Shown one piece after another: positions 3,439 through 61,019 of a stretch of 64,000 bases of DNA. The translations under genes and the position numbers were made by a program. The stretch's first letter is position 1. Every line of letters begins with the position of its first letter. The stretch is from assembly GCA_041663185.1 (NCBI GenBank), contig JBAZQY010000002.1, positions 74,629-138,628 on the forward strand, given 5' to 3'. The notes below the pieces were generated by a model, which made no database searches, was not told the origin of the DNA, and worked only from the letters and a program-made list of their open reading frames with translations. The stretch is from Minisyncoccota bacterium (GTDB lineage: Bacteria; Patescibacteriota; Minisyncoccia; Phycocordibacterales; UBA9973).

Positions 3439-5634
3439 ATGTCCAATAACATATTCAAGCTTAAAAGTAATTTTTCTCCAGCCGGTGATCAGCCGAAGGC
3501 AGTTTCCGAGTTGCTAAATGGTCTTAAAAAGGGAATGAATAAACAGACATTACTTGGTGCTACGGGGACAGGGAAGACTTTTACTATTGCCAATGTAATT
3601 GAAAAATGGAATAAACCAACTTTAGTGATTGCTCACAACAAGACGCTAGCAGCACAGCTTGCTCAGGAATTTCGAGAGTTTTTCCCTGACTCGGCTGTTC
3701 ATTACTTTGTCTCGTATTATGATTATTATCAACCTGAGGCCTACATGCCAGTGACTGATACTTATATTGAAAAGGACGCTCAAATAAATAAAGAAATTGA
3801 CCGACTTCGTCACGCTACCACCCAATCGTTACTTACACGACGCGATGTGATTATTGTGGCTTCGGTGTCGTGTATTTACGGTCTGGGTAGTCCAGAAGAA
3901 TATGAAAAAGTAAATCTGAAACTAAATGTTGGAATGAAAATTGGTAGGACAGAATTAATGAAGCAATTAATCGGAATTCATTTTGAGAGAACCAATGCCG
4001 ATATAACACCAGGAACTTTTCGTTCAATTGGAGCGAAGGTAGAAGTTATGCCGATCTCGGAAACTTTTATTTATCAAATCGAATTTGAAGGAGGAGCAAT
4101 TTCAAGAATTGCGAAAGTTGATCCAGTTTCTTCACACATAATTAAAGAAGAAAAAAACATTTTTCTATTTCCCGCCAAGCATTTTATTACAAATTCTGAG
4201 CAATTAAAGATAGCGGTAAAAAATATTAAAGATGAACTTAATTTTCAGCTTAAAAAATTTGAGAAAGAAGGGAAACTTCTCGAAGCTGAAAGAATAAAAA
4301 GAAGAACGAATTATGACTTAGCGATGATCAGAGAAATTGGATATTGCAATGGAATAGAAAATTATTCAAGACAGATGTCCGGGAAAAAAGAAGGGGAAGC
4401 TCCAGAAACCTTACTTGCGTATTTTAAGGGTGATTTTCTGACAATTATAGATGAATCTCACGTGACCCTCCCTCAAATTGGTGGAATGTATGCGGGGGAT
4501 GCTTCGCGGAAAAATACGCTTGTGGAATTTGGTTTTCGACTGCCGTCAGCAAAAGATAATCGACCGTTAAAGATTAATGAGTTTGAAGAAAGAACTGGAC
4601 AAACTATTTATGTCTCTGCAACTCCAAGTGAAAAAGAAAAATCAATGAGTGCCCAAATCGTCGAGCAGATAATTCGCCCAACCGGACTTATTGACCCAGA
4701 AGTTATTGTCAGACCCGTTAGTGCGTTTACAAGAGAATCTTCTGAAAAAAATCGCTTATCCCTCTCCGCTCCTTCGGAGCTCCGGCGCGCCCACACCTAC
4801 GATTTTTTGTCAGAAGATTCTCTCTCCAACGCCTACCCTGGCCAAATTCAAGATTTTATTATTGAAGCGGAAAAAACAATCAAAAAAGGTTTTCGAGTTA
4901 TTGCCACAACTTTGACCAAGAAAATGGCCGAAGATTTATCTGTTTATTTAAAAGAGAAGGGAATAAAAGCAGAGTATTTACATAGTGAAATTAAAACTAT
5001 CGAGCGCATTCAAATTCTTACCCAATTTAGAAAAGGAGAAATCGATATTCTAGTCGGAGTGAATTTGCTTCGTGAGGGTTTGGATTTGCCAGAACTCGCA
5101 CTCATTGGTATTTTAGATGCCGATAAGGCTGGATTTTTACGCTCTGAAACATCTCTTATCCAGACTATCGGACGAGCGGCAAGAAATGTGGAGGGGAAAG
5201 TTATTTTGTATGCTGATGTAATGAATGATGCACTTGAAAACGCAATCGGGGAAACAAATCGTCGTCGTAATATCCAGATAGCTCATAATAAAAAACACAA
5301 CATTACTCCAAAAACAATTATAAAAAGAATTAAAGATATTACTGAAGAGCTAGAAGACAAACATGAAAAGGCGGTGAATTTAGAGCTTGGTTTAGACGTA
5401 GAGATATTCAAAAAAGCTTTTGAAAAAAATAAAAGTAATCGCGGAAAGGGGGAGCGGGAGTCAGTTAAGAATTTACTACTTTCAGATGAAGATAGGAATA
5501 AGGTTGTCTATGAGAAAATAATTAAAATGAAAGAGAGGGAAATGAATAAAGCCGTCCGAGAACTGGACTTCGAAACAGCGGCAATTTTGCGTGATGAGAT
5601 AATAGTGCTAAAAGAGAAAATGGAGGTTAAGTAG
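3439..5634 (+). CDS. uvrB: Excinuclease ABC subunit B (UvrB). It carries an in-frame subfamily-A repeat-element insertion at 4732-4823.
   Basis: GDQPKAV, GATGTGKTF, YFVSYYDYYQPEAY, the helicase motifs, the beta-hairpin and a C-terminal UVR domain (ELDFETAAILRDEI) are all present. It is about 70 aa longer than usual because of the insertion between RPV and the TTLTKKMAEDL block. Confidence 0.95.
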   Translation: MSNNIFKLKSNFSPAGDQPKAVSELLNGLKKGMNKQTLLGATGTGKTFTIANVIEKWNKPTLVIAHNKTLAAQLAQEFREFFPDSAVHYFVSYYDYYQPEAYMPVTDTYIEKDAQINKEIDRLRHATTQSLLTRRDVIIVASVSCIYGLGSPEEYEKVNLKLNVGMKIGRTELMKQLIGIHFERTNADITPGTFRSIGAKVEVMPISETFIYQIEFEGGAISRIAKVDPVSSHIIKEEKNIFLFPAKHFITNSEQLKIAVKNIKDELNFQLKKFEKEGKLLEAERIKRRTNYDLAMIREIGYCNGIENYSRQMSGKKEGEAPETLLAYFKGDFLTIIDESHVTLPQIGGMYAGDASRKNTLVEFGFRLPSAKDNRPLKINEFEERTGQTIYVSATPSEKEKSMSAQIVEQIIRPTGLIDPEVIVRPVSAFTRESSEKNRLSLSAPSELRRAHTYDFLSEDSLSNAYPGQIQDFIIEAEKTIKKGFRVIATTLTKKMAEDLSVYLKEKGIKAEYLHSEIKTIERIQILTQFRKGEIDILVGVNLLREGLDLPELALIGILDADKAGFLRSETSLIQTIGRAARNVEGKVILYADVMNDALENAIGETNRRRNIQIAHNKKHNITPKTIIKRIKDITEELEDKHEKAVNLELGLDVEIFKKAFEKNKSNRGKGERESVKNLLLSDEDRNKVVYEKIIKMKEREMNKAVRELDFETAAILRDEIIVLKEKMEVK
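4732..4823 (+). repeat. Structured palindromic repeat element, subfamily A, copy A1. It is in-frame inside uvrB and is translated as ...SSEKNRLSLSAPSELRRAHTYDFLSEDSL...
   Basis: The core cgcttatccctctccgctccttcggagctccggcgcgcccacacctac (4753-4800) is about 70% GC in a genome of about 33% GC. It is flanked by a copy-specific inverted repeat, agagaatcttctgaaaaaaatcg versus cgattttttgtcagaagattctct. The inner hairpin is gctcc-ttcg-ggagc. Confidence 0.8.
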
Positions 5635-6818: not shown

Positions 6819-9611
6819 ATGAAAAAAAACGAAGAAGGAAAAATAATAATAAAAGGGGCGCGGACACATAACTTGAAGAATATTAGCGTCGAGATGCCTC
6901 GGAATAAGATGGTTGTTATTACAGGTATGTCAGGAAGTGGAAAGAGCTCGCTTGCTTTTGATACTATTTTTGCTGAAGGCCAACGTCGGTATGTTGAGTC
7001 GCTTTCAGCGTATGCCAGGCAATTTTTAAACCAAATGCCAAAGCCAGATGTCGATGAGATAACAGGTCTTTCGCCGGCAATTTCGATTGACCAGAAATCT
7101 CGTTCGAACAATCCACGCTCGACAGTGGCGACGATTACAGAGATATATGATTATCTTCGAGTTTTATATTCTCGCATTGGACATCCGCATTGTCCGCTTT
7201 GTGGGGATGAAATAAAAAAACTTTCGAACGAAGAGATAATAAATTTTGCCTTGGATAAAATAAAAGAATTTCAAAAAAGTTCAAAAAAGAAAAAAGTTCT
7301 TGGTGTGGAATGGGACGAAACACCAATTTCTATTTTATCTCCAGTTGTTCGTGGCCGAAAAGGTGAATACTATCAGCTTCTGTATGATTTACTTGGCAAA
7401 GGCTTTACAGAAGTTCGCATGGATGGAAATATTAAAAAGTTGCGCGAGCGAATAGATATATCAAAAACAAAAACACACAACATTGAGGTTATAGTGGATT
7501 CTTTTCAAATCCATGAATTTAAAGATAATCCGAGCGATGCTCGAATGCGACTATCTGAAGCGGTGGAGAGAGCAATAATTGAGTCTGAGGGATTGGTTGT
7601 AATTGCTTTTGGGGATATAACTTTGCAGAAACACGCAAATTCTCCGCGCTTAACCCTAAAGGGCTCCGACACGACGGAGAATTTGCGTGTTTCTGCTCCG
7701 CTCCCTAATTATGAAGAATTTTTATTATCGTCAAAATTCTCTTGTCCACGAGATGGATTTGCGTTCCCGGAAATTGAACCACGACTTTTTTCTTTTAATT
7801 CTCCATACGGAGCTTGTCCGACATGTAATGGACTTGGGACAAAATATTTCGGTGGAACGGAAATATGTGATGATTGTCATGGTGCTCGACTAAGAGTTGA
7901 AGCCCTTAATGTGTTTATTGGGGAAAAAGTGAAGCAGGAACATAAAAATTCTTCCCGCTTAACCCTAAAGGGCTCCCTGCCCGACAGTGTCAGTCATAGG
8001 CAGGCGGGCGACACGGATAAGAATTTTCATATTCCTGCTTCGCTTAATATCGTTGACCTCACGCATTTATCGATAGACAAAGTTGCGGACTTTTTTATTG
8101 AACTTGAATTAAATGAACAAGAAAAAGAAATTTCAAATGTAGTGATTAAGGAAATTGAATCGCGTCTTCAGTTTTTATTGAACGTTGGTTTAAATTATTT
8201 ATCATTGGATAGAAAAGCCAATACTTTATCAGGTGGAGAAGCCCAACGTATTCGCCTCGCCAGCCAGCTGGGCTCACGATTAGTTGGAGCACTGTATGTT
8301 CTTGATGAACCGACGATTGGTCTGCACCAACGTGACAATGATAAATTAATTAAAACACTTGAAAATTTGCGTGATATTGGAAATACAATTATTGTTGTTG
8401 AGCACGATGAAGATACAATTTATTCATCGGATTATATCATCGATATTGGGCCAAAAGCCGGAGTCCACGGTGGGGAAGTTATTGTTGCTGATTATTTAGA
8501 CAAACTTCTAAGTGCTCCGACAAACTCTTCAAAATCAAGAACTTTGGCATATTTGCGTAATGAAGAAAGAATTGAAATCCCAGAGAAAAGACGTACGGGT
8601 GAAAAAGGTTCGATCAAAGTTGTTGGGGCAAAAGTTTTTAATATAAAAAACATGAATGTGGAAATTCCGCTCGGCAAGATGGTTACGATTACTGGAGTTT
8701 CTGGGTCTGGTAAAAGTTCTCTGATGTATGAAGTCCTCCATAAAAATCTACAGGCGCGTTATGAACGTAAATACAGAACAGCAACAGTGTTTAACTGCGC
8801 GTCTTTTTCAGGGACAGAATACTTGTCACGAGTAATTTTGATTGATCAATCACCAATCGGACGAACACCACGTTCAAATATTTCTACTTATACTGGCTCG
8901 TTTACTTTTATTCGTGATCTTTTTGCTAGCACCGAAGAAGCTCGTCTTCGGGGTTGGAAGGCCAATAGATTTTCTTTCAATGTAAAAGGGGGTCGTTGTG
9001 AGGCCTGTGAAGGTAACGGTGAGATAGCGGTAGAAATGCATTTCCTACCAACCGTCTATGTGACTTGTGATGTTTGTAATGGTAAAAGATTTGATAAAGA
9101 AACATTAACCATAAAATATAAAAAGAAAAATATTTACGATGTCCTCCAGATGACCGTCGAAGAAGGGTTGAAATTTTTTGAAGATATTCCAAATGTTTAT
9201 GACCGAGTTAAAACCTTAATGGATGTCGGGCTTGGATATGTGAAGCTCGGCCAATCAGCCACAACTCTTTCTGGTGGGGAAGCGCAAAGGGTAAAAATTT
9301 CTTCGGAGCTTTATCGCCCTTATTTGGAGAAAACAATTTATTTACTCGATGAGCCGACTGTCGGGCTTCATTATGATGATGTGGTAAAACTACTTGAGGT
9401 TTTGAATAAGTTAGTAAACAAAGGCAATTCTGTTGTTCTTATTGAACACAATATGGATATTATCAAAAATTCAGATTATATTATTGATGTAGGTCCTGAG
9501 GGAGGACTCGGTGGTGGTAATTTAGTGGCTAAGGGAACGCCAGAAGAAGTGGCCAACAATCCAGCTTCTCATACTGGTAAATATTTGAAAAAAGTGTTGA
9601 GGAGAAAATAA
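6819..9611 (+). CDS. uvrA: Excinuclease ABC subunit A (UvrA). It carries two in-frame subfamily-B repeat insertions.
   Basis: There are two ABC ATPase modules (GMSGSGKSSL and GVSGSGKSSL; LSGGEAQR twice; LDEPT twice) and zinc-finger Cys clusters (CPLCGDEI, CPTCNGLG, CEACEGNG, CDVCNGKRF). It is 930 aa. Confidence 0.95.
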   Translation: MKKNEEGKIIIKGARTHNLKNISVEMPRNKMVVITGMSGSGKSSLAFDTIFAEGQRRYVESLSAYARQFLNQMPKPDVDEITGLSPAISIDQKSRSNNPRSTVATITEIYDYLRVLYSRIGHPHCPLCGDEIKKLSNEEIINFALDKIKEFQKSSKKKKVLGVEWDETPISILSPVVRGRKGEYYQLLYDLLGKGFTEVRMDGNIKKLRERIDISKTKTHNIEVIVDSFQIHEFKDNPSDARMRLSEAVERAIIESEGLVVIAFGDITLQKHANSPRLTLKGSDTTENLRVSAPLPNYEEFLLSSKFSCPRDGFAFPEIEPRLFSFNSPYGACPTCNGLGTKYFGGTEICDDCHGARLRVEALNVFIGEKVKQEHKNSSRLTLKGSLPDSVSHRQAGDTDKNFHIPASLNIVDLTHLSIDKVADFFIELELNEQEKEISNVVIKEIESRLQFLLNVGLNYLSLDRKANTLSGGEAQRIRLASQLGSRLVGALYVLDEPTIGLHQRDNDKLIKTLENLRDIGNTIIVVEHDEDTIYSSDYIIDIGPKAGVHGGEVIVADYLDKLLSAPTNSSKSRTLAYLRNEERIEIPEKRRTGEKGSIKVVGAKVFNIKNMNVEIPLGKMVTITGVSGSGKSSLMYEVLHKNLQARYERKYRTATVFNCASFSGTEYLSRVILIDQSPIGRTPRSNISTYTGSFTFIRDLFASTEEARLRGWKANRFSFNVKGGRCEACEGNGEIAVEMHFLPTVYVTCDVCNGKRFDKETLTIKYKKKNIYDVLQMTVEEGLKFFEDIPNVYDRVKTLMDVGLGYVKLGQSATTLSGGEAQRVKISSELYRPYLEKTIYLLDEPTVGLHYDDVVKLLEVLNKLVNKGNSVVLIEHNMDIIKNSDYIIDVGPEGGLGGGNLVAKGTPEEVANNPASHTGKYLKKVLRRK
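7623..7700 (+). repeat. Structured palindromic repeat element, subfamily B, copy B1. It is in-frame in uvrA and is translated as ...NSPRLTLKGSDTTENLRVSAP...
   Basis: The core cgcttaaccctaaagggctccgacacga is flanked by the copy-specific inverted repeat aaacacgcaaattctccg versus cggagaatttgcgtgttt. The conserved outer ends are ttgcagaaa and tttctgctccg. Confidence 0.8.
7931..8041 (+). repeat. Structured palindromic repeat element, subfamily B, copy B2. It is in-frame in uvrA (NSSRLTLKGSLPDSVSHRQAGDTDKNFHIPAS) and carries a nested 31-bp palindromic insertion.
   Basis: The outer inverted repeat is gaagcagg versus cctgcttc, and the arms are aaaattcttcc versus ggataagaatttt. The core cgcttaaccctaaagggctcc...gacacgga is split by ctgcccgacagtgtcagtcataggcaggcgggc, which is itself an inverted repeat (ctgcc/ggcag, gcccg/cgggc). 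Confidence 0.75.
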
Positions 9612-9913: not shown

Positions 9914-11215
9914 ATGAAAGTCAAAGATTTAAAAAAATTTAAATTGCCAGAGAAACCAGGAGTTTATTTTTTTTACAAAAATAAAGATATTTTATATATA
10001 GGCAAGGCCACTTCGCTTCGCGATAGGGTAAAAAGCTATTTTGGTAAAGATCTCATAGTAACTCGTGGGCCAATTATTCTCGACATGGTAACTCAGGCAA
10101 CCTCGATTAAATGGCAGGAAACTGACAGTGTTCTAGAAGCGCTTATCTTAGAGGCAAATCTGATTAAAAAATATCAGCCGAAGTATAATACTAAAGAGAA
10201 AGATAATAAGAGTTTTAATTATGTTTGTATTACAAAGGAGGAAATACCCAAAGTTTTGGTTGTTCGTGGAAGGAACTTAAATTACCGAGCTGAAGGAAAG
10301 TTTTTCTCAGGTCCTCGGACGAGGGAGGACGAGGGGCCAGACCATTCAAAAAATCTTTCCTTCGGCTCGGTCTATGGCCCATTTCCAAATGGTTCACAAT
10401 TAAAAGAGGCGATGAGAATCGTGCGCAGGATTTTCCCATATATTGATGAACAATCCAGCAAAAAAAATAACAAAGAATTCTACAAACAATTGGGGCTAGT
10501 TCCTATTATTGGGGAGACAAAGCAGAAACATAAAAATTTTTATGTTTCTGCTTTGTCTGATTACAAGAAAAATATCAGAAATTTGAAGTTATTTTTTGAA
10601 GGCAAAAAGAAAAGAATAATTTCAAATTTAAAGAAAGAAATGGCAGCATTTTCAAAATCGCGAGATTTTGAAAATGCTGCTCGAATTCGCGACCAGATTT
10701 TTGCTTTAAATCATATAAACGATGTGGCTTTAATCAAAGAGGATAAGATATTCGGAAGTCCGACTTCCGAATATAGAGTTGAGGCATATGACATAGCTCA
10801 CATGTCAGGGCAAAATATGGTTGGAGTTATGACAGTTATGGAAGATGGACTACTCGCCAAAAATGAATATAAAAAATTTATAATTCGTTCGCAAAAATCT
10901 TCGAATGATACCGGCGCTCTTGAGGAAGTTCTTTCTCGTCGCTTTCGACATATAGAATGGGGCTTACCAAACCTCATTGTTGTCGATGGAAGTACTGCCC
11001 AGATAAATGTTGCCAAACGAGTTTTAAATAGATATCAATTCAAAATCGCAGTTGTTTCTGTTGTCAAAGACGACAAACATAAAGCCAAAGCAATAATGGG
11101 GGATGAAATACTCATCAAAAAATACAAAAAAGAGATTCTCCTAATAAACAGCGAAGCGCACCGTTTTGCAATTGCCTTTCATAAACAAAAAAGAAATAAA
11201 AATTTCCTCAGATAG
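9914..11215 (+). CDS. uvrC: Excinuclease ABC subunit C (UvrC), short form. It has GIY-YIG, UVR and endonuclease domains but no C-terminal (HhH)2. It carries an in-frame subfamily-C repeat insertion.
   Basis: GVYFFYKNKDILYIGKATSLRDRVKSYF is the GIY-YIG motif. FENAARIRDQIFAL is the UVR domain. The RNase H-like region is present. The 433-aa length is shorter than the canonical roughly 600 aa. Confidence 0.8.
   Translation: MKVKDLKKFKLPEKPGVYFFYKNKDILYIGKATSLRDRVKSYFGKDLIVTRGPIILDMVTQATSIKWQETDSVLEALILEANLIKKYQPKYNTKEKDNKSFNYVCITKEEIPKVLVVRGRNLNYRAEGKFFSGPRTREDEGPDHSKNLSFGSVYGPFPNGSQLKEAMRIVRRIFPYIDEQSSKKNNKEFYKQLGLVPIIGETKQKHKNFYVSALSDYKKNIRNLKLFFEGKKKRIISNLKKEMAAFSKSRDFENAARIRDQIFALNHINDVALIKEDKIFGSPTSEYRVEAYDIAHMSGQNMVGVMTVMEDGLLAKNEYKKFIIRSQKSSNDTGALEEVLSRRFRHIEWGLPNLIVVDGSTAQINVAKRVLNRYQFKIAVVSVVKDDKHKAKAIMGDEILIKKYKKEILLINSEAHRFAIAFHKQKRNKNFLR
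10285..10370 (+). repeat. Structured repeat element, subfamily C, copy C1. It is in-frame in uvrC and is translated as ...SGPRTREDEGPDHS...
   Basis: The core gtcctcggacgagggaggacgaggggccagaccat has an internal GGACGAGG x2 direct repeat. It is flanked by a copy-specific 26-bp inverted repeat, ccgagctgaaggaaagtttttctcag versus tcaaaaaatctttccttcggctcgg. Confidence 0.8.
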
Positions 11216-11223
11216 GAAAGATT

Positions 11224-11300
11224 ATATGCAAAAATTATGAGTAGGTGTGGGCGCGCGCCGAGCGAAGCGAGGTAGGGATAAGCGAATAATTTTTGTATAT
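11224..11300 (-). repeat. Structured palindromic repeat element, subfamily A, copy A2. It is intergenic between uvrC and ddl, in reverse orientation.
   Basis: The reverse complement is cgcttatccctacctcgcttcgctcggcgcgcgcccacacctac. The arms are atatgcaaaaattat versus ataatttttgtatat. The ORF-track N-terminal extension of ddl (MGARRAKRGRDKR...) is just this element translated. Confidence 0.8.
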
Positions 11301-11369
11301 AATCTTTCCTATTTTCAAATAAAAGCTATTTCAATTCCTATTATTTTAAATAATTGTTATAATGAATTT

Positions 11370-12374
11370 ATGATAAAAGTTGGAGTTATTCGTGGGGGAA
11401 TAAGTGGGGAATATGAAGTATCACTTGCAAGTGGTGCTCAAGTTCTTGAACATTTACGAAGCGACAAGATGAATAAAAAATACAAACCCGTTGATATCTT
11501 TATTGATCGCGATGGTATTTGGCATGTGAGTGGCATTCCTACAACGATGGATAAAATAATTCACAAAGTAGATGTTATTGTAAATGCTCTTCATGGGGAC
11601 TATGGTGAAGATGGTAAGGTCCAACAGTTGCTTGAGCAGTGGGGGATTCCATATACCGGTAGTGGGCCTTTTGCTTCAGCTATTGGCTACAACAAACTGC
11701 TAACCAAACAAGAATTTTCAAAGTTAGGAATAAACACACCAAGGCATATTCTTTTCCCAGCATATCAGGAAGATTTTGATGGACCAAAAGATAAATATGC
11801 ACTTTCAAAAGCTCGAGAAGTTCTTGAGCGCTTGCCCCCACCATGGATTGTAAAGCCCCTAACTGGTGGGTCATCGATGGGTATGCATATTTGTAAAACG
11901 TTTCAATCTCTTATTGATGCATTTAAAGATGGTGTCAATGGAAAGGTTAGTGTGCTTGTCGAAGAGTTTATAAAAGGCAAAGAAGCGACGGTAGGAGTGA
12001 TAGATAATTTTCGAGGAAAAGATATTTATACTCTCCCTCCGATTGAAATCCGAATTCCAAAAACGAGTGCATTTTTTGATAATGAAGTGAAATACAACGG
12101 TCAATCACAAGAAATTTGCCCGGGAAATTTTACAGATACTGAGAAAGAAGAGCTTGAACGCCTAGCTTCTCTTATCCACACCGGATTGGATCTTAGCCAC
12201 TATTCAAGAAGCGATTTCATTATTCACCCAAAGAGGGGCATTTTTGCTCTCGAAGTAAATACCTTGCCAGGGCTTACGGGAGAGTCACTAATGCCTAAAG
12301 CACTCAAGGCTGTCGGTTCTGATTTGCCTGAGTTTATTGAACATATCATTAAATTGGCGAAGAATCGAAGATAG
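11370..12374 (+). CDS. ddl: D-alanine--D-alanine ligase
   Basis: MIKVGVIRGGISGEYEVSLASG is the N-domain. ATP-grasp motifs (WIVKPLTGGSSMGMHI, EEFIKGKEATVGV, ALEVNTLPGLT) are present. The start is moved to the ATG at 11370, which is in-frame and downstream of the repeat. A TATAAT 8 nt upstream suggests a leaderless mRNA. Confidence 0.85.
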   Translation: MIKVGVIRGGISGEYEVSLASGAQVLEHLRSDKMNKKYKPVDIFIDRDGIWHVSGIPTTMDKIIHKVDVIVNALHGDYGEDGKVQQLLEQWGIPYTGSGPFASAIGYNKLLTKQEFSKLGINTPRHILFPAYQEDFDGPKDKYALSKAREVLERLPPPWIVKPLTGGSSMGMHICKTFQSLIDAFKDGVNGKVSVLVEEFIKGKEATVGVIDNFRGKDIYTLPPIEIRIPKTSAFFDNEVKYNGQSQEICPGNFTDTEKEELERLASLIHTGLDLSHYSRSDFIIHPKRGIFALEVNTLPGLTGESLMPKALKAVGSDLPEFIEHIIKLAKNRR

Positions 12375-12430
12375 TTATTTAAAGGGTATTGATTTTTCTA
12401 CATAAATATGATATAATATTAAGATAAATT

Positions 12431-13438
12431 ATGAAAAGATTTCTCGAAAAAATTACTCATACTATTATTCCCCACGAAAAGAACAGCAACGTTCCTCATA
12501 TTTTGAAGATAGAATCTCTGTTTGTTATCGCTACTTTTGCTATTGTTTTATTTTATTTTAATCAAAACAATTTTAGTATAATTAGGAATTTAAATTTATC
12601 AGCAACAGTTTATCCGGCGGTGCTTGCAGACCTCGCCAATCAAGATCGAGCAGTTTCTGGTGTATCTCTACTTACTTGGAACAATACTCTTGCCGAGGGA
12701 GCCAAATTAAAAGCCCTTGATATGGCGGAGAATAGTTACTTTGCCCACACGAGCCCATCTGGGGTTACTCCATGGTCATGGTTTGCAAAAGTAAATTATA
12801 ATTTTATCTATGCTGGAGAGAATCTGGCGGTAGATTTTACTGAATCAAAAAATGTACAGAACGCTTGGCTTAATTCTCCGACCCATCGAGCCAATATTTT
12901 AAGTTCACATTTCACTGAAGTGGGGATTGCGACCGTTGATGGAGTTTTTGAGGGTAAGAATACGACTTTTGTTGTCGAGTTTTTTGGCAGACCAGCTGAA
13001 GCTAAAGTGATTGAAAAATCTATTCTCAAAACACCCCAAACATTACCAAAAGAAACAAATAAAGTTACAACATCAAGTGTCGCCGGAGTATCAGCCGAGA
13101 AAGTACCGTCTCAAAATACTAAGCAAGATTTAAATATTAAAACAGTAGAAGAGACAGACAAATATATTGTTGTTAAAAATGAAAACATTCTAGGTGAAGA
13201 GTTTCCGATAATTTCAGATAATTTGAAAAGTAAATCATTGTCGACTTGTTTTGAGCGTTTTATCGTAAGCCCAACACAGACAATTAAATATATTTATATG
13301 ATTGTTCTCGTGCTAGTTTTGATCGCTATTTTATTAATGCTTTCAAAAGAGTACAAGAAACACCACATAAAACATGTAGTTATGGGAGTGGTACTCGTCA
13401 TTATAGTGGCGGTACTTTTATACACTATCTCTGTATAA
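12431..13438 (+). CDS. Membrane-anchored CAP/SCP (YkwD-like) domain protein.
   Basis: It has an N-terminal TM helix. The CAP-like motifs are AHTSPSG, YAGENLAVDF, NAWLNSPTHRANIL and HFTEVGIA. A C-terminal TM helix is present. Confidence 0.5.
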   Translation: MKRFLEKITHTIIPHEKNSNVPHILKIESLFVIATFAIVLFYFNQNNFSIIRNLNLSATVYPAVLADLANQDRAVSGVSLLTWNNTLAEGAKLKALDMAENSYFAHTSPSGVTPWSWFAKVNYNFIYAGENLAVDFTESKNVQNAWLNSPTHRANILSSHFTEVGIATVDGVFEGKNTTFVVEFFGRPAEAKVIEKSILKTPQTLPKETNKVTTSSVAGVSAEKVPSQNTKQDLNIKTVEETDKYIVVKNENILGEEFPIISDNLKSKSLSTCFERFIVSPTQTIKYIYMIVLVLVLIAILLMLSKEYKKHHIKHVVMGVVLVIIVAVLLYTISV

Positions 13439-17945: not shown

Positions 17946-18782
17946 ATGAAACCAAAAACACTGCAGATGCTTGTTCCAGGAGGAAATCCTAATGGAATGA
18001 AAATAATAGAACTTCCTGGATGGTCTGGCAAGTGTTTTTTATTACCTCGTCAAAATTTAAAAGAATTAAAGGATTCCTCTGATGTAAACCAACCGGGTCT
18101 TTATATTTTATTTGGTTCGAATGAAGAGTCAGGAGATGATCTTGCTTATATAGGTGAATCAGAAAATTTTTACAGTCGTATTACAAATCATGATGCAAAT
18201 AAAGACTTTTGGAATACAGCTGTTATTTTTACCGGGGAATTAAATAAAGCCCATGTTAAATATTTAGAGTATAAGGCTACGGCATTAGCCCATAAAGTAA
18301 ATCGTATGACGGTTCAAAACAAAGTACAACCTCCAGAAAATTCATTATCATATTTTGATAAGATTTCAGCCGAAGAATATTTTGAAAATGTACAATTTAT
18401 TTTAGAAGCATTGGGGTACCAACTTTTTGAAGCTGTTGCTGAGTCAATTTCTGACACTAAGCTTTATTATTTAAAAGCTGAAGGAGCAGACGCTAAAGCT
18501 CAATTATTAGAAGACGGTAGTCTTAATATTCTTAAAGGATCTACTGCAAGAATTAGAGAAACTGAAGCATTTTTTGGTTGGTCAAAGGCTGCAAGAGAAA
18601 AGTTTCTTAAGGATGGTATTTTAATTGAGAAGGGAGACGGGATATCTTATTTATTTACAAAAGATGTTTTATTTAAAAGTCCTACTGCTGCTGCCGCTAC
18701 GACCACAGGAAGACCAATCAATGGGTGGACATCATGGAAAGATGAATCTGGTAATACGTTAGATGAAAATTTAAGGAAATAG
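17946..18782 (+). CDS. GIY-YIG nuclease family protein with a C-terminal DUF4357-like domain. This family is commonly associated with R-M and defence loci.
   Basis: GLYILFGSNEESGDDLAYIGESENFYSRITNH is the GIY-YIG motif. The C-terminal block reads GSTARIRETEAFFGWSKAAREKFLKDGILIEKGDGISYLF. It lies directly upstream of hsdM. Confidence 0.65.
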   Translation: MKPKTLQMLVPGGNPNGMKIIELPGWSGKCFLLPRQNLKELKDSSDVNQPGLYILFGSNEESGDDLAYIGESENFYSRITNHDANKDFWNTAVIFTGELNKAHVKYLEYKATALAHKVNRMTVQNKVQPPENSLSYFDKISAEEYFENVQFILEALGYQLFEAVAESISDTKLYYLKAEGADAKAQLLEDGSLNILKGSTARIRETEAFFGWSKAAREKFLKDGILIEKGDGISYLFTKDVLFKSPTAAAATTTGRPINGWTSWKDESGNTLDENLRK

Positions 18783-19019: not shown

Positions 19020-20717
19020 ATGACAAATAATTATTCAATAAAACAAGTAGCTAAAAGATTGGGGGTTCATGAAGATACTCTTCGCAATTGGGAAGATCAA
19101 GGGCTTATTAAACCTTTGCGTGTAGGCAAAAGACAAGATAGAAAATATACAGATGAAATTATAAATACAATAATTGAGAAAGGGTTAGCTCATCCAATTT
19201 TGAGTTTAGATAAAGACGCTCCAGAGAAAAAAGAAAAAATGAAATTATCAGAGCTTCAATCATTTTTATGGAAGAGTGCTGATATTCTCCGCGGGAAAAT
19301 TGATAGTGGCGATTATAAATCATATATTTTCGGACTTCTCTTTTATAAGAGAATAAGCGATATGTGGGATGAAGAGTATGAAGATATTTTAGCAAAATTT
19401 CACGATGAAGAACTTGCCAATGCCGACTACAACCACAAATTCCAAGTTCCGAAAGATTGCCGTTGGTTAGAAGTTCAGAAAGAAGCTACAAATATTGGCT
19501 CAAAGCTCAACGATGTTTTTGATAAATTAACTACTGCAAACACTCCCAAGCTTGATAAGATTTTCAACAACTTAAATTTCGCTGATAAAGACCGCTTCCC
19601 CAACGAAACAACTCAACGCCTCATAAACCATTTCTCAAAATATAATTTTGGTAATACTTACATCAATTCGGATATTCTTGGTGATGCATATGAATATCTT
19701 ATAAAACAATTTGCTTCAGATGCCGGGAAAAAGGGAGGCGAGTTCTACACTCCACGAGAAATTGAAAGAGTAATAATAAAAATAATAAAACCTGAAGCCA
19801 AAAGTCATGTAAATGACCCAACATGTGGCTCGGGAGGATTTTTATTGGAAGCTTATCATTATGTTCGTGAAAAATTTGGAGATAAGGAAGCTCGCAAGAT
19901 GTATTTATCGGGGCAAGAAATAAATATTGGAACTTATGCAATTTCAAAAATAAATATGTTCTTACACGGGCTTGAAAGTACCGACATCCGCCGAGGAGAT
20001 ACATTAGCAGATCCTCAATTTTTAGATAAAGCTGGGAAAATCCAAACATTTTCTCATGTAGTTGCAAATTTTCCGTACTCAATCAAAGAGTGGGAATGGG
20101 AAACTTTTACTCATGACAAATATGGTCGCACAGATGGGTATGAACTTCCTCCACAGAAAAATGCTGACTACGCTTTTATTCTCCACATAATAAAATCTTT
20201 GAACGAAAACGGCAGAGCTGGGATTGTTGTCCCGCATGGTGTGCTTTTCAAATCTGATACTTCGGGGAGAATTCGTGAGCAAGTTTTAAAGAATGACTTA
20301 ATAGAGGCAATTATCGCAATGCCTGCAAAGCTTTTCTCGGGAGTTGGTATTCCTGTGGCTCTTGTGATATTAAACAAGGCAAAAGCACCAAATCATAAAA
20401 ACAAAATTCTTTTCATAGATGCCGAAAGTGATTATCAAGAAGGGAAAAATCAAAATTCGCTACGAAATCAAGACATAGAAAAAATTGTTTCAGCTTTTGA
20501 TAATTGGAGAGATGTTGATAAATATGCTCGTGTTATAAATATGAAAGAAATAGAAGAAAACGATTATAATTTAAATGTTCGTAGATATATTGACTCATCG
20601 GAAGTAGAAGAAGTTATTGATGTTTCCGTTGTGTGGAAAGAATTAAAACAAACAGAAAAAGAGCGTGATGAAATCAATAAAAAAGTCGAGGGATATTTAA
20701 AAGAATTAATATACTAA
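19020..20717 (+). CDS. hsdM: Type I restriction-modification system methyltransferase subunit HsdM, with an N-terminal MerR/excisionase-like HTH.
   Basis: IKQVAKRLGVHEDTLRNWEDQGLI is the HTH. The HsdM N-terminal domain (LWKSADILRG) is present. The SAM-binding motif is DPTCGSGGFL and the N6-adenine motif is VVANFPYS. Confidence 0.9.
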   Translation: MTNNYSIKQVAKRLGVHEDTLRNWEDQGLIKPLRVGKRQDRKYTDEIINTIIEKGLAHPILSLDKDAPEKKEKMKLSELQSFLWKSADILRGKIDSGDYKSYIFGLLFYKRISDMWDEEYEDILAKFHDEELANADYNHKFQVPKDCRWLEVQKEATNIGSKLNDVFDKLTTANTPKLDKIFNNLNFADKDRFPNETTQRLINHFSKYNFGNTYINSDILGDAYEYLIKQFASDAGKKGGEFYTPREIERVIIKIIKPEAKSHVNDPTCGSGGFLLEAYHYVREKFGDKEARKMYLSGQEINIGTYAISKINMFLHGLESTDIRRGDTLADPQFLDKAGKIQTFSHVVANFPYSIKEWEWETFTHDKYGRTDGYELPPQKNADYAFILHIIKSLNENGRAGIVVPHGVLFKSDTSGRIREQVLKNDLIEAIIAMPAKLFSGVGIPVALVILNKAKAPNHKNKILFIDAESDYQEGKNQNSLRNQDIEKIVSAFDNWRDVDKYARVINMKEIEENDYNLNVRRYIDSSEVEEVIDVSVVWKELKQTEKERDEINKKVEGYLKELIY

Positions 20718-20721
20718 ATAT

Positions 20722-21543
20722 ATGGATATAACACCATTTGAGAAAATAAAAAAGGTTACAGATTATGGAGCAGAGTATTGGATAGCCAGAGAGTTAATGG
20801 AGGTTCTTGGTTACGATACATGGAGAAGATTTGAAGATGCTATCCAAAGAGCGATAGAATCATGTAATAACGCAGGAGGAGATGCAAGTCAAGAGTTTTT
20901 GCCGGCTCCGGCAAAAACCCAAGAGGTAGGTGGAAGACCCGGAAAAGACTATATTTTATCAAGATATGCTTGTTATCTTATAGCACAAAATGGAGATCCA
21001 TCAAAAGAGCAAATAGCTAATGCTCAGACTTATTTTGCAATACAAGCAAGAAAACAAGAAGTATATGAGACAACAATTGAGGATAAAAAGAGAGTAATGT
21101 TGCGAGAAGAAATGAAAAAGCATAATTTAGAACTTGCTTCAGCTGCTAAACAAGCCGGTGTTATAGATCCATACGATTATGCGATTTTTCAAAATTTTGG
21201 TTATAAGGGTTTATATGGGAATCTTGGTGTGCAAGATATTCACAGGAAGAAAGGTCTCAAAAAATCTCAGAAAATATTAGACCATATGGGGAGTGAAGAG
21301 TTAGCTGCAAATCTTTTTAGAACTACTCAAGCAGAGGCAAAATTACGACGAGAGAATAGAAAAGATAAAGGCAGAGCAAATGAATTACATAGAGAAGTAG
21401 GTGCTATGGTTAGAAAAACAATAAAAGAAATAGGAGGTACTATGCCAGAAAATTTACCCGTTGCTGAAGGGATAAATAAAACTGTTCTTAAATTGAAAAA
21501 AGGTACGATAGATAAAAAATTACTTAAACCTAATAAAAAATAA
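20722..21543 (+). CDS. DinD-like (DNA-damage-inducible protein D family) / Bro-N-domain protein, embedded between hsdM and hsdS.
   Basis: PFEKIKKVTDYGAEYWIARELMEVLGYDTWRRFEDAIQRAIESC resembles the Bro-N/DinD N-terminal signature. At 273 aa it is about the same length as E. coli DinD. This is recalled from memory and not searched. Confidence 0.5.
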   Translation: MDITPFEKIKKVTDYGAEYWIARELMEVLGYDTWRRFEDAIQRAIESCNNAGGDASQEFLPAPAKTQEVGGRPGKDYILSRYACYLIAQNGDPSKEQIANAQTYFAIQARKQEVYETTIEDKKRVMLREEMKKHNLELASAAKQAGVIDPYDYAIFQNFGYKGLYGNLGVQDIHRKKGLKKSQKILDHMGSEELAANLFRTTQAEAKLRRENRKDKGRANELHREVGAMVRKTIKEIGGTMPENLPVAEGINKTVLKLKKGTIDKKLLKPNKK

Positions 21544-21547
21544 ATTT

Positions 21548-42480: not shown

Positions 42481-42581
42481 TTTGAATATTTTATACCTTA
42501 CTAGCTAAAATTCACTATTAGATGCTATAAGTAGAAGATTTTAAGGAAGTGAATAATAGACAGGAAGTGTATTAAAATTAT

Positions 42582-42621: not shown

Positions 42622-42750
42622 AAAAGTAAATGAGTAAGGCAAGACCTTGCTCACTCGAAAATTATGGAATACAAATTATTTAAAATCCCTATCGTAATCC
42701 CTAGTCATTTCCCTAGGGATTATTAATTTTATAAAAATAAAAACCCTGGC

Positions 42751-47212: not shown

Positions 47213-47298
47213 GAAAACGGAGCAGAAATTTGAAAATTATTCGCGCTTTACCCTAAAGGGCTCCGACACGACTCATAATTTTCAAATTTCTGCTCCGT
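47213..47298 (+). repeat. Structured palindromic repeat element, subfamily B, copy B3 (intergenic). It forms a large hairpin acting as a bidirectional terminator between convergent genes.
   Basis: The 27-bp perfect inverted repeat is aaaacggagcagaaatttgaaaattat versus ataattttcaaatttctgctccgtttt, around the core tcgcgctttaccctaaagggctccgacacgac. A T-run follows. Confidence 0.8.
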
Positions 47299-47300
47299 TT

Positions 47301-47879
47301 TTAACCTATTTTTTCTAACGCTTTTGGAATTTTTTTGAAATCTTTTATTAGTGTTTCTCTCATTCCGCCATTATACAAAGCGGCGGCGGGATGATATAAG
47401 GGAAGGAACGCTTGTTTGCCGAGTTCTGGGGTGGTTTTTATCAAAAGTTTACCGTGAATGTCGGATATTTTTTCAGTAGGAAAGAATCTAGTCATTGAAT
47501 GTCGGCCAAGAAAAACAATTAATTTGGGAGAAATTATTTTTAATTCATTTATAAGCCATTCGTTGCAGGCTTCTTTTTCTTCAGGTTCAGGGTCACGATT
47601 GTTTGGTGGACGATATTTTACAATATTTGTGACATAAATATCTTCACGTTTTTTTCCGATACCCATTAGCATTTCTTCTAGAAACTTTCCGGCGGATCCG
47701 ACAAATGGAATTCCTTTTAGGTCTTCATTTTTACCCGGCGCTTCACCAATAAAAACAATTTCGCTTTCTGCATTTCCGTTGCCAAAAACAGCCTGGGTGG
47801 CTGTTTTTCTCAATCCACACTCGCAATTCTCCTGCCAATACTTATTTAATTCGTCTAATTTTTCACGTTTTGATAGCAT
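47301..47879 (-). CDS. Family-4 uracil-DNA glycosylase.
   Basis: GEAPGKNEDLKGIPFVGSAGKFL is the family-4 UDG motif A. HPAAALYN is motif B. An Fe-S Cys cluster is at the N-terminus. Confidence 0.8.
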   Translation of the reverse strand: MLSKREKLDELNKYWQENCECGLRKTATQAVFGNGNAESEIVFIGEAPGKNEDLKGIPFVGSAGKFLEEMLMGIGKKREDIYVTNIVKYRPPNNRDPEPEEKEACNEWLINELKIISPKLIVFLGRHSMTRFFPTEKISDIHGKLLIKTTPELGKQAFLPLYHPAAALYNGGMRETLIKDFKKIPKALEKIG

Positions 47880-49838: not shown

Positions 49839-50963
49839 ATGAATGTCAAAGAATATGTGGATATCAAAAATTATTCCACCCTTAAAATAGGTGGGCAGTT
49901 TCGCTATTTTGCAGAAATAGATAATAAAAAAGAGCTGAAGGACGTTTATGATTTTGCGGAACAAAAGAATATTCCTGTGTTTATATTGGGAGGTGGTTCA
50001 AATATTGTTTTTTCCGATGGAGTTATAAATGTTTTAGCTCTGAAGGTTGAAATTAAAGGTTTCGACATAATAAATGAAGACGACGATTTTGTTGATATAA
50101 AAGTTGGGGCGGGAGAAATTTGGGATGAAATTGTCGAAAAAACCATCGAGATGAATTTATCGGGGCTTGAAGCTCTTTCGGCCATTCCAGGTACTGTCGG
50201 GGCAACACCAGTTCAAAATGTCGGAGCTTATGGAGCAGAAGTTAAAGACACGATTATTTCTGTAGAGGTTTTTGATATTAAAAATCAAACGATAACTTTT
50301 CTATCAAATGAGGATTGTAAATTCGGATATCGAGATAGTATTTTCAAAAATGAAGCCAAGGGTAAATATGTCATAACGGCGGTGACCTATAGATTGAAAA
50401 ATATAGACATAGACCAGCAAGATATTCCTTCTAAAAATCGCTTATCCCTACCGCATCCTTCGGATTCGGCGCACGCCCACACCTACGATTTTTATAAGCA
50501 ATATCTTGCTGGTCTTCCGGTTATGAATTACCCAGGAGTTAAAAAGTATTTTGAAGATAAAAAAATAGAAAATCTCACCTTGAAACAAATTCGGGAGGCG
50601 ATAATAGAGATAAGAAAAGAGAAATTACCAAATCCAAAAATAATTCCGAATGTTGGCTCATTTTTTAAAAATCCAATTGTTGAAAATAAAATAGCTGAGG
50701 ACATTAAGGAAAAGTTTCCTAATTTGAGATTATTTCCAGTTGATGAAAAAATAACAAAAATTCCCGCTGGCTGGCTTATCGAAAATGCTGGGTTAAAAGG
50801 GAAGTCGCTTGGTAATATTTCTGTCTATGATAAAAATGCACTTGTCTTAATAAATAATGGAAATGCTTCAAAAGAAGATTTACTAGAAGCAAAAAATGAA
50901 ATAGTTAAAATAGTCAAAGAAAAATTCGGAATAACCTTAGAGCAAGAACCCGAGATTTTATAA
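49839..50963 (+). CDS. murB: UDP-N-acetylenolpyruvoylglucosamine reductase MurB, carrying an in-frame subfamily-A repeat insertion.
   Basis: The FAD-binding domain (LKIGGQ...ILGGGSNIVF, GLEALSAIPGTVGATPVQNVGAYG) and the C-terminal domain are present. The insert is translated as ...KNRLSLPHPSDSAHAHTYDFYKQ... Confidence 0.8.
   Translation: MNVKEYVDIKNYSTLKIGGQFRYFAEIDNKKELKDVYDFAEQKNIPVFILGGGSNIVFSDGVINVLALKVEIKGFDIINEDDDFVDIKVGAGEIWDEIVEKTIEMNLSGLEALSAIPGTVGATPVQNVGAYGAEVKDTIISVEVFDIKNQTITFLSNEDCKFGYRDSIFKNEAKGKYVITAVTYRLKNIDIDQQDIPSKNRLSLPHPSDSAHAHTYDFYKQYLAGLPVMNYPGVKKYFEDKKIENLTLKQIREAIIEIRKEKLPNPKIIPNVGSFFKNPIVENKIAEDIKEKFPNLRLFPVDEKITKIPAGWLIENAGLKGKSLGNISVYDKNALVLINNGNASKEDLLEAKNEIVKIVKEKFGITLEQEPEIL
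50414..50512 (+). repeat. Structured palindromic repeat element, subfamily A, copy A3. It is in-frame in murB.
   Basis: The core cgcttatccctaccgcatccttcggattcggcgcacgcccacacctac is flanked by a 27-bp copy-specific inverted repeat, ccagcaagatattccttctaaaaatcg versus cgatttttataagcaatatcttgctgg. Confidence 0.8.
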
Positions 50964-54964: not shown

Positions 54965-54986
54965 ATTTGGTTAGAAAAGAAAAGTA

Positions 54987-55066
54987 ATATTCAAAATTTA
55001 TGAGTAGGTGTGGGCGCGCCGGAGCCCGAAGGGCGGAGAGGGATAAGCGAATAAATTTTGAATATT
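54987..55066 (-). repeat. Structured palindromic repeat element, subfamily A, copy A4. It is intergenic upstream of miaA, in reverse orientation.
   Basis: The reverse complement is cgcttatccctctccgcccttcgggctccggcgcgcccacacctac. The arms are aatattcaaaatttat versus ataaattttgaatatt. Confidence 0.8.
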
Positions 55067-55128
55067 ATTTTTCTTTCACATATATTATATTCGCACAAAA
55101 ATAGTTTTTTTGCTATAATATCAAAATT

Positions 55129-58634: not shown

Positions 58635-61019
58635 ATGAAAGAATACGATCATAAAAAAATTGAATTAAAATGGCAGAAAGATTGGGAGAAGAAAAAGATT
58701 TTCTCGGCTATTAATGGATCTAAAAAACCAAAATTTTATGCTCTAATAGAATTCCCATATCTTTCTGGGTCCGGACTTCATATTGGCCACATACGCTCAA
58801 ATACAGCAATGGATATAATTTCTCGAAAACGTTGGATGGAAGGATATAATGTTATGTACCCAATAGGGTATGATGCTTTTGGCCTACCAACTGAAAACTA
58901 TGCAATTAAAACTGGAAAGCAACCGACAATCATCAATAAAGAAAATACAGAGATGTTTCGTCGACAACTCAAAAAAATTGGGTTTGCTTTTGACTGGTCT
59001 CGAGAATTAAACACAGCAAACCCAGCTTATTATAAATGGACCCAATGGATATTTTTACAAATGTTTAAAAAAGGTTTGGCTTATAAACAAAAAACGATGA
59101 TTAATTGGTGTCCGAAAGATAAAATTGGTTTAGCTAATGAAGAAGTAGTAAATGGAAAATGTGAGCGATGTGGAACAGAAACTATAAAAAAGGAAAAGGA
59201 GCAATGGATGCTTGCTATTACAAAATATGCCGAGCGCCTCGATAAAGATTTAGATGATGTGGATTATTTAGAAAGAATAAAAGCCCAACAAAGAAACTGG
59301 ATAGGTAAGTCAGAAGGAAGTGAAATTGAGTTTAAGGTTAAAGGTGATTCTCAATCAGTGCGAGTATTTACCACTCGAGCTGATACTATTTTAGGAGTAA
59401 CGTATGTTGTGCTTGCACCGGAAAGTGTATTGGTTCAAAATCTAAAATCACAAATTACAAATTGGAATGAAGTAGAGAAATATATTGAAAAAGTAAAAAA
59501 AGAGTCAGAGCAAGAAAGAACGAAGGAGGATAAAGAAAAAACTGGAGTTGAACTGAAGGGAATTAAGGCTATAAATCCAGCAAACAAAGAAGAGCTTCCT
59601 GTTTGGATTGCCGACTATGTTCTTGCGTCTTATGGAACAGGCGCAGTTATGGCAGTTCCACAACACGATAGTCGTGATAAAGAATTTGCTGAAAAATTTA
59701 ATCTTTCAATTATTGATAGACCATTAGTGGATGCAGAAGAAATAACAAAAAGAGTTGGCGGGAAAATGGTTACAAAATATAAATTACGTGATTGGATTTT
59801 CTCAAGACAAAGATACTGGGGTGAGCCTATTCCTTTGATTCACTGCGATCGATGTGCCCTAAACGATCCCGACGGGCAAGGATATATTCCAGTGCCCGAT
59901 AAAGATTTGCCAGTAGTTTTGCCGAAAGTTAAATCGTACACCCCTACAGATACTGGCGAATCACCACTGGCTAATATTTCCAAATGGGTAAATGTTAAAT
60001 GTCCTAAATGCGGAGGTAAAGCGCGCAGAGAGACAGACACAATGCCAAACTGGGCGGGTTCTTCTTGGTATTATTTGCGCTATACTGATCCTAAAAATAA
60101 AAAAGAGTTCGCTAGCGCAAAAAATTTAAAATATTGGACTCCTGTGGATTGGTATAACGGTGGGATGGAACACACGACACTTCATCTTTTGTATTCTCGT
60201 TTTTGGCACAAGTTTTTATATGACATGAAATTAGTTCCAACAAAAGAGCCATATAAAAAACGCACAGCACATGGGATGATTTTGGCCGAAGATGGAGAGA
60301 AAATGTCAAAATCAAGAGGCAACGTGGTTAATCCAGATGAAATCGTTAAGCTATATGGAGCTGATACTTTTCGACTTTATGAAATGTTTATTGGTCCATT
60401 TGATCAGACGGTTACTTGGAATACAAATAGTATTATTGGCCCTCGAAGATTTTTGGAAAAAGTTTGGAAGATAGGAGAAAAAATCACTACACAGAAACAG
60501 ATAAATTCTTCGCGCTTAACCCTAAAGGGCTCCGACACGACGAAGAATTTTTCTGTTTCTGCTTCATTCCAAACGCTTTTAAATAAAACAATAAAAAAAG
60601 TTTCTGAAGATATTGAGAGTATGAGTTTTAATACAGCTGTTTCTTCAATGATGGTTTTGGTCAACGAAATGGAAAAACAAGATGTTGATAAAAAAGATTT
60701 TAAAATATTTTTACAGATTTTAGCACCATTTGCTCCACACATTACCGAAGAATTGTGGAATATGTTAGGTGAAAAACAATCAATAAATAAAAGTAAATGG
60801 CCAAAGTGGGATGAAAAGAAAATTATTGATGATAAAATAAAAATAGCTGTTCAAATAAATGGCAAAGTTCGCACCGAAATTATGGTCTCGAAAGATATGT
60901 CCGAAGGGGAAATTAAACCTTTAGTTTTGAAAGATCAAAAGATCATCAGTTGGATGGAGGGAAAAGAAATTAAAAAATTCATATATGTTCCAAATAGAAT
61001 AATAAACATAGTCATTTAG
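58635..61019 (+). CDS. leuS: Leucyl-tRNA synthetase, carrying an in-frame subfamily-B repeat insertion in the linker before the anticodon-binding domain.
   Basis: HIGH is present (SGSGLHIGH) and KMSKS is present. The editing domain is present. The insertion is translated as ...INSSRLTLKGSDTTKNFSVSAS... Confidence 0.9.
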   Translation: MKEYDHKKIELKWQKDWEKKKIFSAINGSKKPKFYALIEFPYLSGSGLHIGHIRSNTAMDIISRKRWMEGYNVMYPIGYDAFGLPTENYAIKTGKQPTIINKENTEMFRRQLKKIGFAFDWSRELNTANPAYYKWTQWIFLQMFKKGLAYKQKTMINWCPKDKIGLANEEVVNGKCERCGTETIKKEKEQWMLAITKYAERLDKDLDDVDYLERIKAQQRNWIGKSEGSEIEFKVKGDSQSVRVFTTRADTILGVTYVVLAPESVLVQNLKSQITNWNEVEKYIEKVKKESEQERTKEDKEKTGVELKGIKAINPANKEELPVWIADYVLASYGTGAVMAVPQHDSRDKEFAEKFNLSIIDRPLVDAEEITKRVGGKMVTKYKLRDWIFSRQRYWGEPIPLIHCDRCALNDPDGQGYIPVPDKDLPVVLPKVKSYTPTDTGESPLANISKWVNVKCPKCGGKARRETDTMPNWAGSSWYYLRYTDPKNKKEFASAKNLKYWTPVDWYNGGMEHTTLHLLYSRFWHKFLYDMKLVPTKEPYKKRTAHGMILAEDGEKMSKSRGNVVNPDEIVKLYGADTFRLYEMFIGPFDQTVTWNTNSIIGPRRFLEKVWKIGEKITTQKQINSSRLTLKGSDTTKNFSVSASFQTLLNKTIKKVSEDIESMSFNTAVSSMMVLVNEMEKQDVDKKDFKIFLQILAPFAPHITEELWNMLGEKQSINKSKWPKWDEKKIIDDKIKIAVQINGKVRTEIMVSKDMSEGEIKPLVLKDQKIISWMEGKEIKKFIYVPNRIINIVI
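60492..60565 (+). repeat. Structured palindromic repeat element, subfamily B, copy B4. It is in-frame in leuS.
   Basis: The core cgcttaaccctaaagggctccgacacga is flanked by the inverted repeat cagaaacagataaattcttcg versus cgaagaatttttctgtttctg (1 mismatch). Confidence 0.8.

Follow-up and report, generated by a model that had tools for sequence, protein, structure and literature searches.

How GC-rich hairpins come to lie in frame within the housekeeping genes of an AT-rich bacterium, and what keeps their two arms complementary, are the questions raised by a 64,000-nt stretch of contig JBAZQY010000002.1 (assembly GCA_041663185.1), hereafter the window, to which the element coordinates refer. 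The host lineage is Candidatus Paceibacterota (Parcubacteria, Candidate Phyla Radiation, CPR), the window UvrA being identical to a protein assigned to this group by NCBI and JGI, and the GC content of the window is 34.6%. A first-pass annotation had described eleven repeat elements in three groups, A, B and C, and compared them with the Rickettsia palindromic elements (RPEs). We consider it likely that they are selfish, non-autonomous and translated hairpin repeats of Paceibacterota that resemble RPEs and whose arms are actively homogenised.

All eleven elements were found at the positions assigned to them. The B core CTTAACCCTAAAGGGCTCC has four matches in the window where 0.01 would be expected, the C core has three where none would be expected, and the A boxes TCGCTTATCCCT and GCCCACACCTAC each have four exact matches. 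An element is one long hairpin of ~70–120 nt, in which AT-rich arms enclose a conserved GC-rich core, containing an asymmetric internal loop and a short G-C stem, and a variable apical hairpin. The core or loop GC content of 57–71% sets the elements apart from the AT-rich window, as had been described. Inverted arms of 21–30 nt with 83–100% complementarity flank ten of the eleven elements, and the folding z-scores of these ten range from -5.2 to -10.7. Such arms had been attributed to every copy; C3 departs from this architecture as a degenerate element (arms of ~9 bp, z = -0.65).

The inserted unit is the whole hairpin, comprising both arms and the core. Taking out the 72-nt hairpin of the related locus L003 restores collinearity with L042 with 0 gaps, and several other empty-site comparisons at uvrB leave 0–2 gaps after removal of the hairpin. 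Within the window, A1 (4723–4832, forward strand; core 4752–4803; z = -7.4) is inserted in frame in uvrB. Compared with the solved UvrB structure (PDB 2fdc), the window UvrB has 40 extra residues located exactly between residues 427 and 429, in the interdomain linker. An inverted duplication of the target at insertion, with one arm derived from native gene sequence, had earlier been considered and a comparison with insert-free orthologues suggested. This comparison did not support a native arm: both arms are absent from the empty sites, and locus L161 has duplicated its arms together with the core.

The first-pass annotation had made mobility depend on further copies outside the window, and such copies are abundant. 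We scanned ~170 related loci (2.4 Mb in total) de novo for AT-rich arms around a GC-rich loop and obtained 108 further non-redundant elements in 57 sequences, 85 of which (79%) lie within long open frames. Hairpins overall numbered 958 in these loci, compared with 381 in block-shuffled controls. Clustering of the cores gave four families, with 27 B-like, 18 C-like and 10 A-like copies and 17 copies of a family D. The same few sites in uvrB, tgt, uvrC, and uvrA turned out to be used repeatedly by different families. A single uvrB position carries, in different species, A elements in both orientations, C elements in both orientations or members of two further families, and three families each occur at one tgt position and one uvrC position.

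Among UvrA homologues of 79–88% identity, the length varies from 844 to 979 residues around an insert-free length of 863 residues. The extra residues are located at the N-terminus and near reference residues 153, 235, 265, 338, and 498, and any one position holds a B, A or C peptide, another peptide or nothing, depending on the relative. The window carries in-frame B elements at two of these hotspots: B1 (7625–7696, forward strand; perfect 22-bp arms) at reference residue 265, corresponding to a position between residues 256 and 262 of the solved UvrA, and B2 (7927–8045, forward strand) at reference residue 338, which holds a nested 33-nt GC-rich insert at 7977–8009. Directly upstream of uvrA in L163, a close relative, we also observed a pair of genes resembling a diversity-generating retroelement (865–2089), encoding the accessory protein bAvd together with a reverse transcriptase that bears an Lcl_C domain.

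Searches of proteins with element-encoded peptides were unproductive; the 31-residue B4 peptide returned a single chance match, to an unrelated repeat protein, among 1.84 billion representatives. A concatenated peptide query identified one candidate, P0121 (ENA, 136 residues), an RsmA/KsgA fragment from another metagenome bearing the C peptide KFFSGPRTREDEGPDH, which adds RsmA/KsgA to the host genes of C. The three core patterns had no match in IMG/VR viral contigs.

The conservation of the cores lies in the DNA and not in the peptide, because other genomes use the same cores in other reading frames and in reverse orientation (L010, L088). As the cores are shared between unrelated genes and intergenic DNA and occur in either orientation and in more than one frame, the elements are nucleotide-level repeats rather than protein linkers, in agreement with the earlier description. 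Within the window, cores are 75–100% identical between copies (37/37 positions for C1 and C2, 28/28 for B1 and B4). Lineage-own core variants are common to the copies of that lineage, for example the C apex GGACGAGGGAGGACGAGG in the window, L165, L042, and L001, and the apical hairpin varies within each family with compensating changes (CCC-TAAA-GGG, CCCC-AGA-GGGG, CCCGTC…GACGGG). The core of family D, …GCTTAACCCT-TCCCGGAGTACCGGG-TGGGACCCACACC…, was found in relatives and combines the B 5' box GCTTAACCCT with the A 3' box CCCACACC, which supports a superfamily uniting A and B. A B covariance model also gives weak matches, in the corresponding orientation, to the A elements A2 and A4. The superfamily proposed for all elements thus stands for A and B, but no such link was found for C.

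The arms had been regarded as unique to each copy. This is true of the C arms, which are only 36–58% identical between window copies (chance level), whereas the arms of B copies are 68–82% and those of A2 and A4 77–82% identical. The arms of A1 and A3, like those of C, are not conserved between copies, and we found no third copy of the C or A3 arms in the window. B arms are composed of a conserved outer part, CAGAAA...TTTCTG, a hypervariable middle of 6–7 nt and a conserved inner part, AATTCTTCG, and the variable middle is always mirrored in the opposite arm. Across 21 B copies, double changes have occurred at 17 of 24 arm pairs with 88.7% of the cells paired; none of 500 shuffles reached this level of covariation, and slid controls came nowhere near it. 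Six species each carry a C copy at the same uvrB site; the arms of these six copies are homologous, 10 of 22 pairs are compensated, including transversion-type swaps, and 95.5% are paired. In both sets arm identity is maintained, and no arm decay with time was seen.

The chemistry of the pairing is informative about the level at which it is maintained. The arms contain nearly no G-U pairs, the covariation is almost purely Watson–Crick, mismatches on the sense strand are more often A-C (59) than G-T (28), and elements occur both sense and antisense to the transcription of their host genes. These patterns argue that what keeps the arms complementary acts on the DNA, and that it is not selection for an RNA fold. 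Selection on the hairpin with concerted evolution of the core, as suggested in the first-pass annotation, fits the different evolution of arms and core, but the same patterns make an RNA hairpin unlikely.

Besides A1, B1, and B2, four window copies are inserted in frame in conserved genes: A3 (50411–50515, forward strand; z = -9.6) in murB, B4 (60489–60564, forward strand) in leuS, C1 (10284–10371, forward strand) in uvrC, and C2 (35393–35479, forward strand) near the N-terminus of a minus-strand Nramp gene, which places C2 antisense to C1 relative to their host genes. Pfam or PDB matches confirmed the identity of the host genes in the window. As claimed, the elements leave all seven host open reading frames (ORFs) uninterrupted, and the peptides RLTLKGS of the genic B copies and KNRLSL...AHTYDF of the genic A copies were found as read. 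The B consensus has one open frame of six (read by eye), which largely explains the recurrence of RLTLKGS. Genic copies have 1–4 stop-free frames of six and intergenic copies 0–2. All 85 genic elements in relatives keep a long open frame, which is predicted if translated inserts are filtered but is not needed by introns, inteins or bypassed elements. An AlphaFold2 model of UvrA based on 26 close homologues had a mean pLDDT of 43, too poor for placing the inserts, with a local drop at residues 270–296.

The remaining copies are intergenic. A2 (11212–11312, reverse strand; 27-nt arms, 96% complementary) separates uvrC and ddl, A4 (54976–55076, reverse strand) lies 12 nt upstream of the miaA start codon, B3 (47214–47301, forward strand; perfect 27-bp arms; z = -10.7) fills the gap between convergent genes for an LTD/PKD-domain protein and a UDG-family protein, and C3 (56883–56955, forward strand) is located upstream of a Sua5/YrdC gene. 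The B covariance model, run on the window, matched B1 (102 bits), B2, B3, B4, and a coreless copy, B5 (31 bits); B5 and a stump, B6, are two B copies beyond the original eleven, and the model found no others in the window. The extra 9.6 kb upstream of the window present in L169, a second assembly that agrees with the window at 100% identity over 11.3 kb apart from an extra 115 nt in tgt, contains no A–C copies.

Comparison of copies at homologous sites suggests that entire elements have been copied. The two B copies at sites 265 and 338 of the L161 uvrA are identical at 70 of 72 positions, including the variable arm middle, pointing to recent copying or conversion of whole elements; the window B copies at the same two sites differ from those of L161 and from each other. 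Site 265 also documents exchange between families. It is occupied by B arms with a B core in the window, L161, and L164, by the left half of a B element with a nested C element in L163, and by a C core within outer arms and flanks of the B type in L007, L017, and L026. Such nesting and chimeras indicate that cores can nest and swap inside resident arms. Resident arms between which only cores move were rejected as a general rule, as the arms at the uvrB site cluster with the core family, even though this does happen at uvrA site 265.

Elements are also lost. The perfect palindrome B5 (10515–10558, forward strand; 22 + 22 nt), in frame in uvrC, is orthologous to a complete B element in L163 (6279–6368), and its inner arms contain self-complementary AAAATTTT stretches, between which the core was lost. 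In tgt, the window retains only a B left-arm remnant, the B6 stump (2855–2870, forward strand), where L169 holds 115 nt more (12477–12591 of L169, matching window position 2870). The additional sequence comprises an entire B element, whose 28-bp arms are perfect and which is read as SQNSSRLTLKGSDTDKNF, and 44 nt of native tgt. The L169 gene is intact (11822–13108, 428 residues), whereas the 115-nt deletion in the window, between two CAGAAAA repeats, causes a frameshift that splits tgt into two ORFs (2192–3387). This slippage deletion reflects either genuine variation in the population or an assembly error induced by the element; in either case, it shows the instability caused by the hairpins. 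L169 further contains an intergenic inverted repeat (5229–5315) with arms resembling the T-arm and acceptor end of a tRNA (…TTCGAATCC…) and with another hairpin, a perfect one of 14 bp, enclosed between them.

The UVR motif of uvrC presents a different kind of palindrome. The sequence AAFSKSRDFENAA at 10643–10680 is a perfect palindrome with 17-bp arms and a 4-nt loop, found only in the window and in L003 and L084, where the arms reach 19 bp; in ~140 relatives the motif forms palindromes of at most 9 bp. The left arm resembles the conserved right arm copied in inverted orientation, as if template switching had acted on native coding DNA. A coreless element was ruled out here since the protein length is unchanged. 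Two intergenic palindromes without spacer or GC core, perfect or near-perfect, were also noticed at 42578–42625 (24-nt arms) and 30653–30690 (19-nt arms), which may be terminators or further coreless elements. A gene for a GIY-YIG/DUF4357 protein (17946–18782) precedes a 10-kb stretch of lower GC content (29–31%, ~20000–30000) that is devoid of A–C elements and may be a separate island.

These observations show that copies spread within and between lineages, that different families use the same few sites repeatedly, and that copies nest, form chimeras, and disappear by slippage deletion. Every surviving genic copy leaves the host frame open, the survivors being those copies that happen to be in frame and stop-free. 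We propose that, after insertion, one arm would convert the other at the DNA level, probably by template switching at quasi-palindromes or by repair of an extruded hairpin; arm-by-arm conversion of this kind would let arms drift fast yet stay perfect. The core would remain near-identical within a genome either because the mobilising machinery recognises it or because gene conversion homogenises it. Mobilisation could be carried out in trans by a structure-specific enzyme that leaves no target-site duplication.

Several observations weigh against this proposal. All sequence data are metagenome assemblies, and the conversion of one arm by the other is deduced from comparative patterns; the mismatches shared by B2 and L003, and by L026 and L040, have stayed uncorrected, implying that any such conversion is not continuous. 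The unrelated arms on C copies with 37/37 identical cores are not fully explained. The repeated use of sites could partly reflect recombination between lineages or a small number of permissive loops instead of a target preference. No identical full-length copy pair occurs at two loci within the window, and neither a transposase nor another mobilising enzyme was recognised among the window ORFs scanned. The translation of genic copies into extra surface-loop peptides is presumed from intact ORFs only. Finally, the IS200/RAYT-like Y1 genes that we did encounter in related loci (L165 2110–2815, L002 567–1300, L108 2207–2971, and L128 13921–14577) are each flanked on both sides by their own short, lineage-specific hairpin, e.g., GTAGACGTCGGACGTCTAC, unrelated to the A–D elements.

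These Y1 genes bear on the mode of movement. Repetitive extragenic palindromes (REPs) are extragenic, 20–40 nt long and carry a GTAG or CGTC tag. A REPIN-like route, in which a domesticated HUH Y1 transposase (RAYT/IS200) recognising the conserved core moves the hairpins as single-stranded DNA, would account for the missing target-site duplication and for a recognition that seems to need the hairpin shape and a small conserved core, and Y1_Tnp-like genes with a short hairpin on each side are present in 4–5 of the ~170 loci. The present elements also share with REP/REPIN-RAYT systems that pairing is kept while the sequence varies. However, they are mostly genic (79%), longer, lack the GTAG/CGTC tag in the A–D cores, and do not flank the Y1 genes, none of which occurs in the window. 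As those genes carry hairpins of their own, the route is only a candidate, and we consider it unlikely. Slightly more credit, though still tentative, may be given to a modular, structure-directed mobile system, in which core cassettes are inserted or exchanged at the tips of resident hairpins and arms are rewritten by hairpin-templated conversion, the agent being a CPR enzyme or a peculiarity of repair in reduced genomes; if true, it would continually provide essential proteins with new surface peptides. Classical miniature transposable elements with inverted repeats (MITEs), cut and pasted by a DDE transposase through recognition of their terminal inverted repeats, with target-site duplications as a result, are very unlikely. 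The outer arm ends CAGAAA...TTTCTG are common to B copies, and B copies often carry GCTTCGC or GCTCCGC on both flanks, giving four 7-nt direct repeats where 0.3 are expected, but this flank motif is identical at unrelated sites and is more suggestive of element sequence or of a target preference than of a duplication. The longest direct repeat in the flanks of the 108 elements averages 3.09 nt against 2.93 nt for random pairings, i.e., there is no signal of target-site duplication. The arms of C, A1, and A3, unlike the outer ends of B, are not conserved between copies, which speaks somewhat against MITEs, and no parent insertion sequence with matching ends was seen among the window ORFs scanned.

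The strong covariation of the stems around conserved unpaired boxes and the very stable predicted folds could also be expected from a structured RNA, such as a cis-regulatory element, terminator, ribozyme or small RNA under selection for its fold, and T runs follow on both strands of B3, which lies between convergent genes. Against this stand the near-absence of G-U pairs, the excess of A-C mismatches, the occurrence of one family both sense and antisense to host genes (C1 vs. C2; L010), and the location of most copies in coding sequence, where they are gained and lost between close relatives. Rfam searches at gathering and relaxed thresholds returned only tRNAs and sub-threshold hairpin noise, and a simple terminator scan, blind to long-loop hairpins, flagged only the C3 core. 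Altogether, a structured RNA seems scarcely probable. Even less can be said for a core that inserts alone and acquires one arm through inverted copying of the native gene sequence next to it. The uniqueness of the C and A arms, with no third copy in the window, would suit this origin, and the uvrC palindrome made in place indicates that inverted copying of native DNA occurs in the lineage, but the empty sites lacking both arms, the clustering of arms with the core family at the same site, and the joint duplication of arms and core in L161 make it extremely unlikely. We give as little credence to elements that are removed or skipped as mini-introns, inteins or bypassed sequences. The byps of Magnusiomyces capitatus mitochondria are skipped by the ribosome and need no reading frame. 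Like these and the GC clusters of Saccharomyces mitochondria, the present elements are GC-rich mobile palindromes that lie in genes of an AT-rich genome and nest in one another. Unlike byps, they reside in a bacterial chromosome, and every genic copy, in the window as well as the 85 in relatives, is in frame and stop-free. They are also too short for inteins or self-splicing introns, and the tgt deletion variant breaks the frame.

We then compared our preferred reading, translated hairpin repeats with homogenised arms, with known coding palindromes. The likeness to RPEs (RPE-1 to RPE-8/10; Ogata et al., 2000, 2002, as summarised in PMC10969869) drawn in the first-pass annotation was borne out, as multi-copy palindromic hairpin families occur in frame in many unrelated genes (7/11 elements in the window, 85/108 in relatives). 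Both systems comprise several short palindromic families in a small AT-rich genome, with in-frame copies in housekeeping genes as well as intergenic copies, and both are without a transposase or a clear target-site duplication and are presumed to be translated as surface peptides (PMC10969869). The elements described here belong to another phylum and, as far as tested, are unrelated in sequence (no Rfam match), the comparison being one of descriptions. They measure 70–120 nt instead of ~100–150 bp, with a GC-rich conserved core and AT-rich arms, and differ further in the extreme reuse of the same sites and in nesting and chimeras between families. Their arms stay perfectly complementary through compensated changes, while the repeats of RPEs reportedly become less identical over time (PMC6649704).

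In Nematomorpha mitochondrial genes, for which template switching has been proposed, perfect inverted repeats within translated genes are apparently kept by repeat conversion, similarly to the arms described here (PMC6649704). The UVR palindrome of uvrC is exactly of this type, with native arms and no insertion, whereas families A–D are inserted repeats with shared cores in a bacterium and not native conserved coding arms in a mitochondrion (PMC6649704). Bacterial MITEs that fuse with ORFs (ERIC, Correia, BOX, and Coxiella QMITE) are likewise small, non-autonomous hairpin repeats that sometimes add peptides, but they have conserved terminal repeats, usually target-site duplications, and mostly intergenic locations, in contrast to a conserved part that is central and copies that mostly lie in essential genes (PMC10969869, PMC5896051). 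Our full-text literature search found no report of such elements in CPR/Patescibacteria. The elements are Rickettsia-like coding palindromes in Paceibacterota, set apart by a central conserved core, maintained arms, the reuse of hotspots, and modular nesting.

In-frame coding palindromes have so far been treated as a peculiarity of Rickettsia. Here, the same phenomenon has arisen independently in another reduced, host-dependent lineage and in a richer form, with four families, reuse of sites at the level of the codon, nesting and chimeras, and perfect arms. The elements also carry a warning for those who annotate and assemble CPR genomes or use them in phylogenomics: tgt is split by a deletion linked to an element, and an independent assembly, the Logan contig L170 (window 60513–64000), breaks exactly within the B4 core, showing that such repeats fragment assemblies. 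For the organisms themselves, the elements are a source of fast length variation in core proteins, including UvrA, UvrB, UvrC, TGT, LeuRS, and MurB, and they offer a natural system in which to study how palindromes are maintained and how templates are switched in bacteria where the usual nucleases that process hairpins may be missing.

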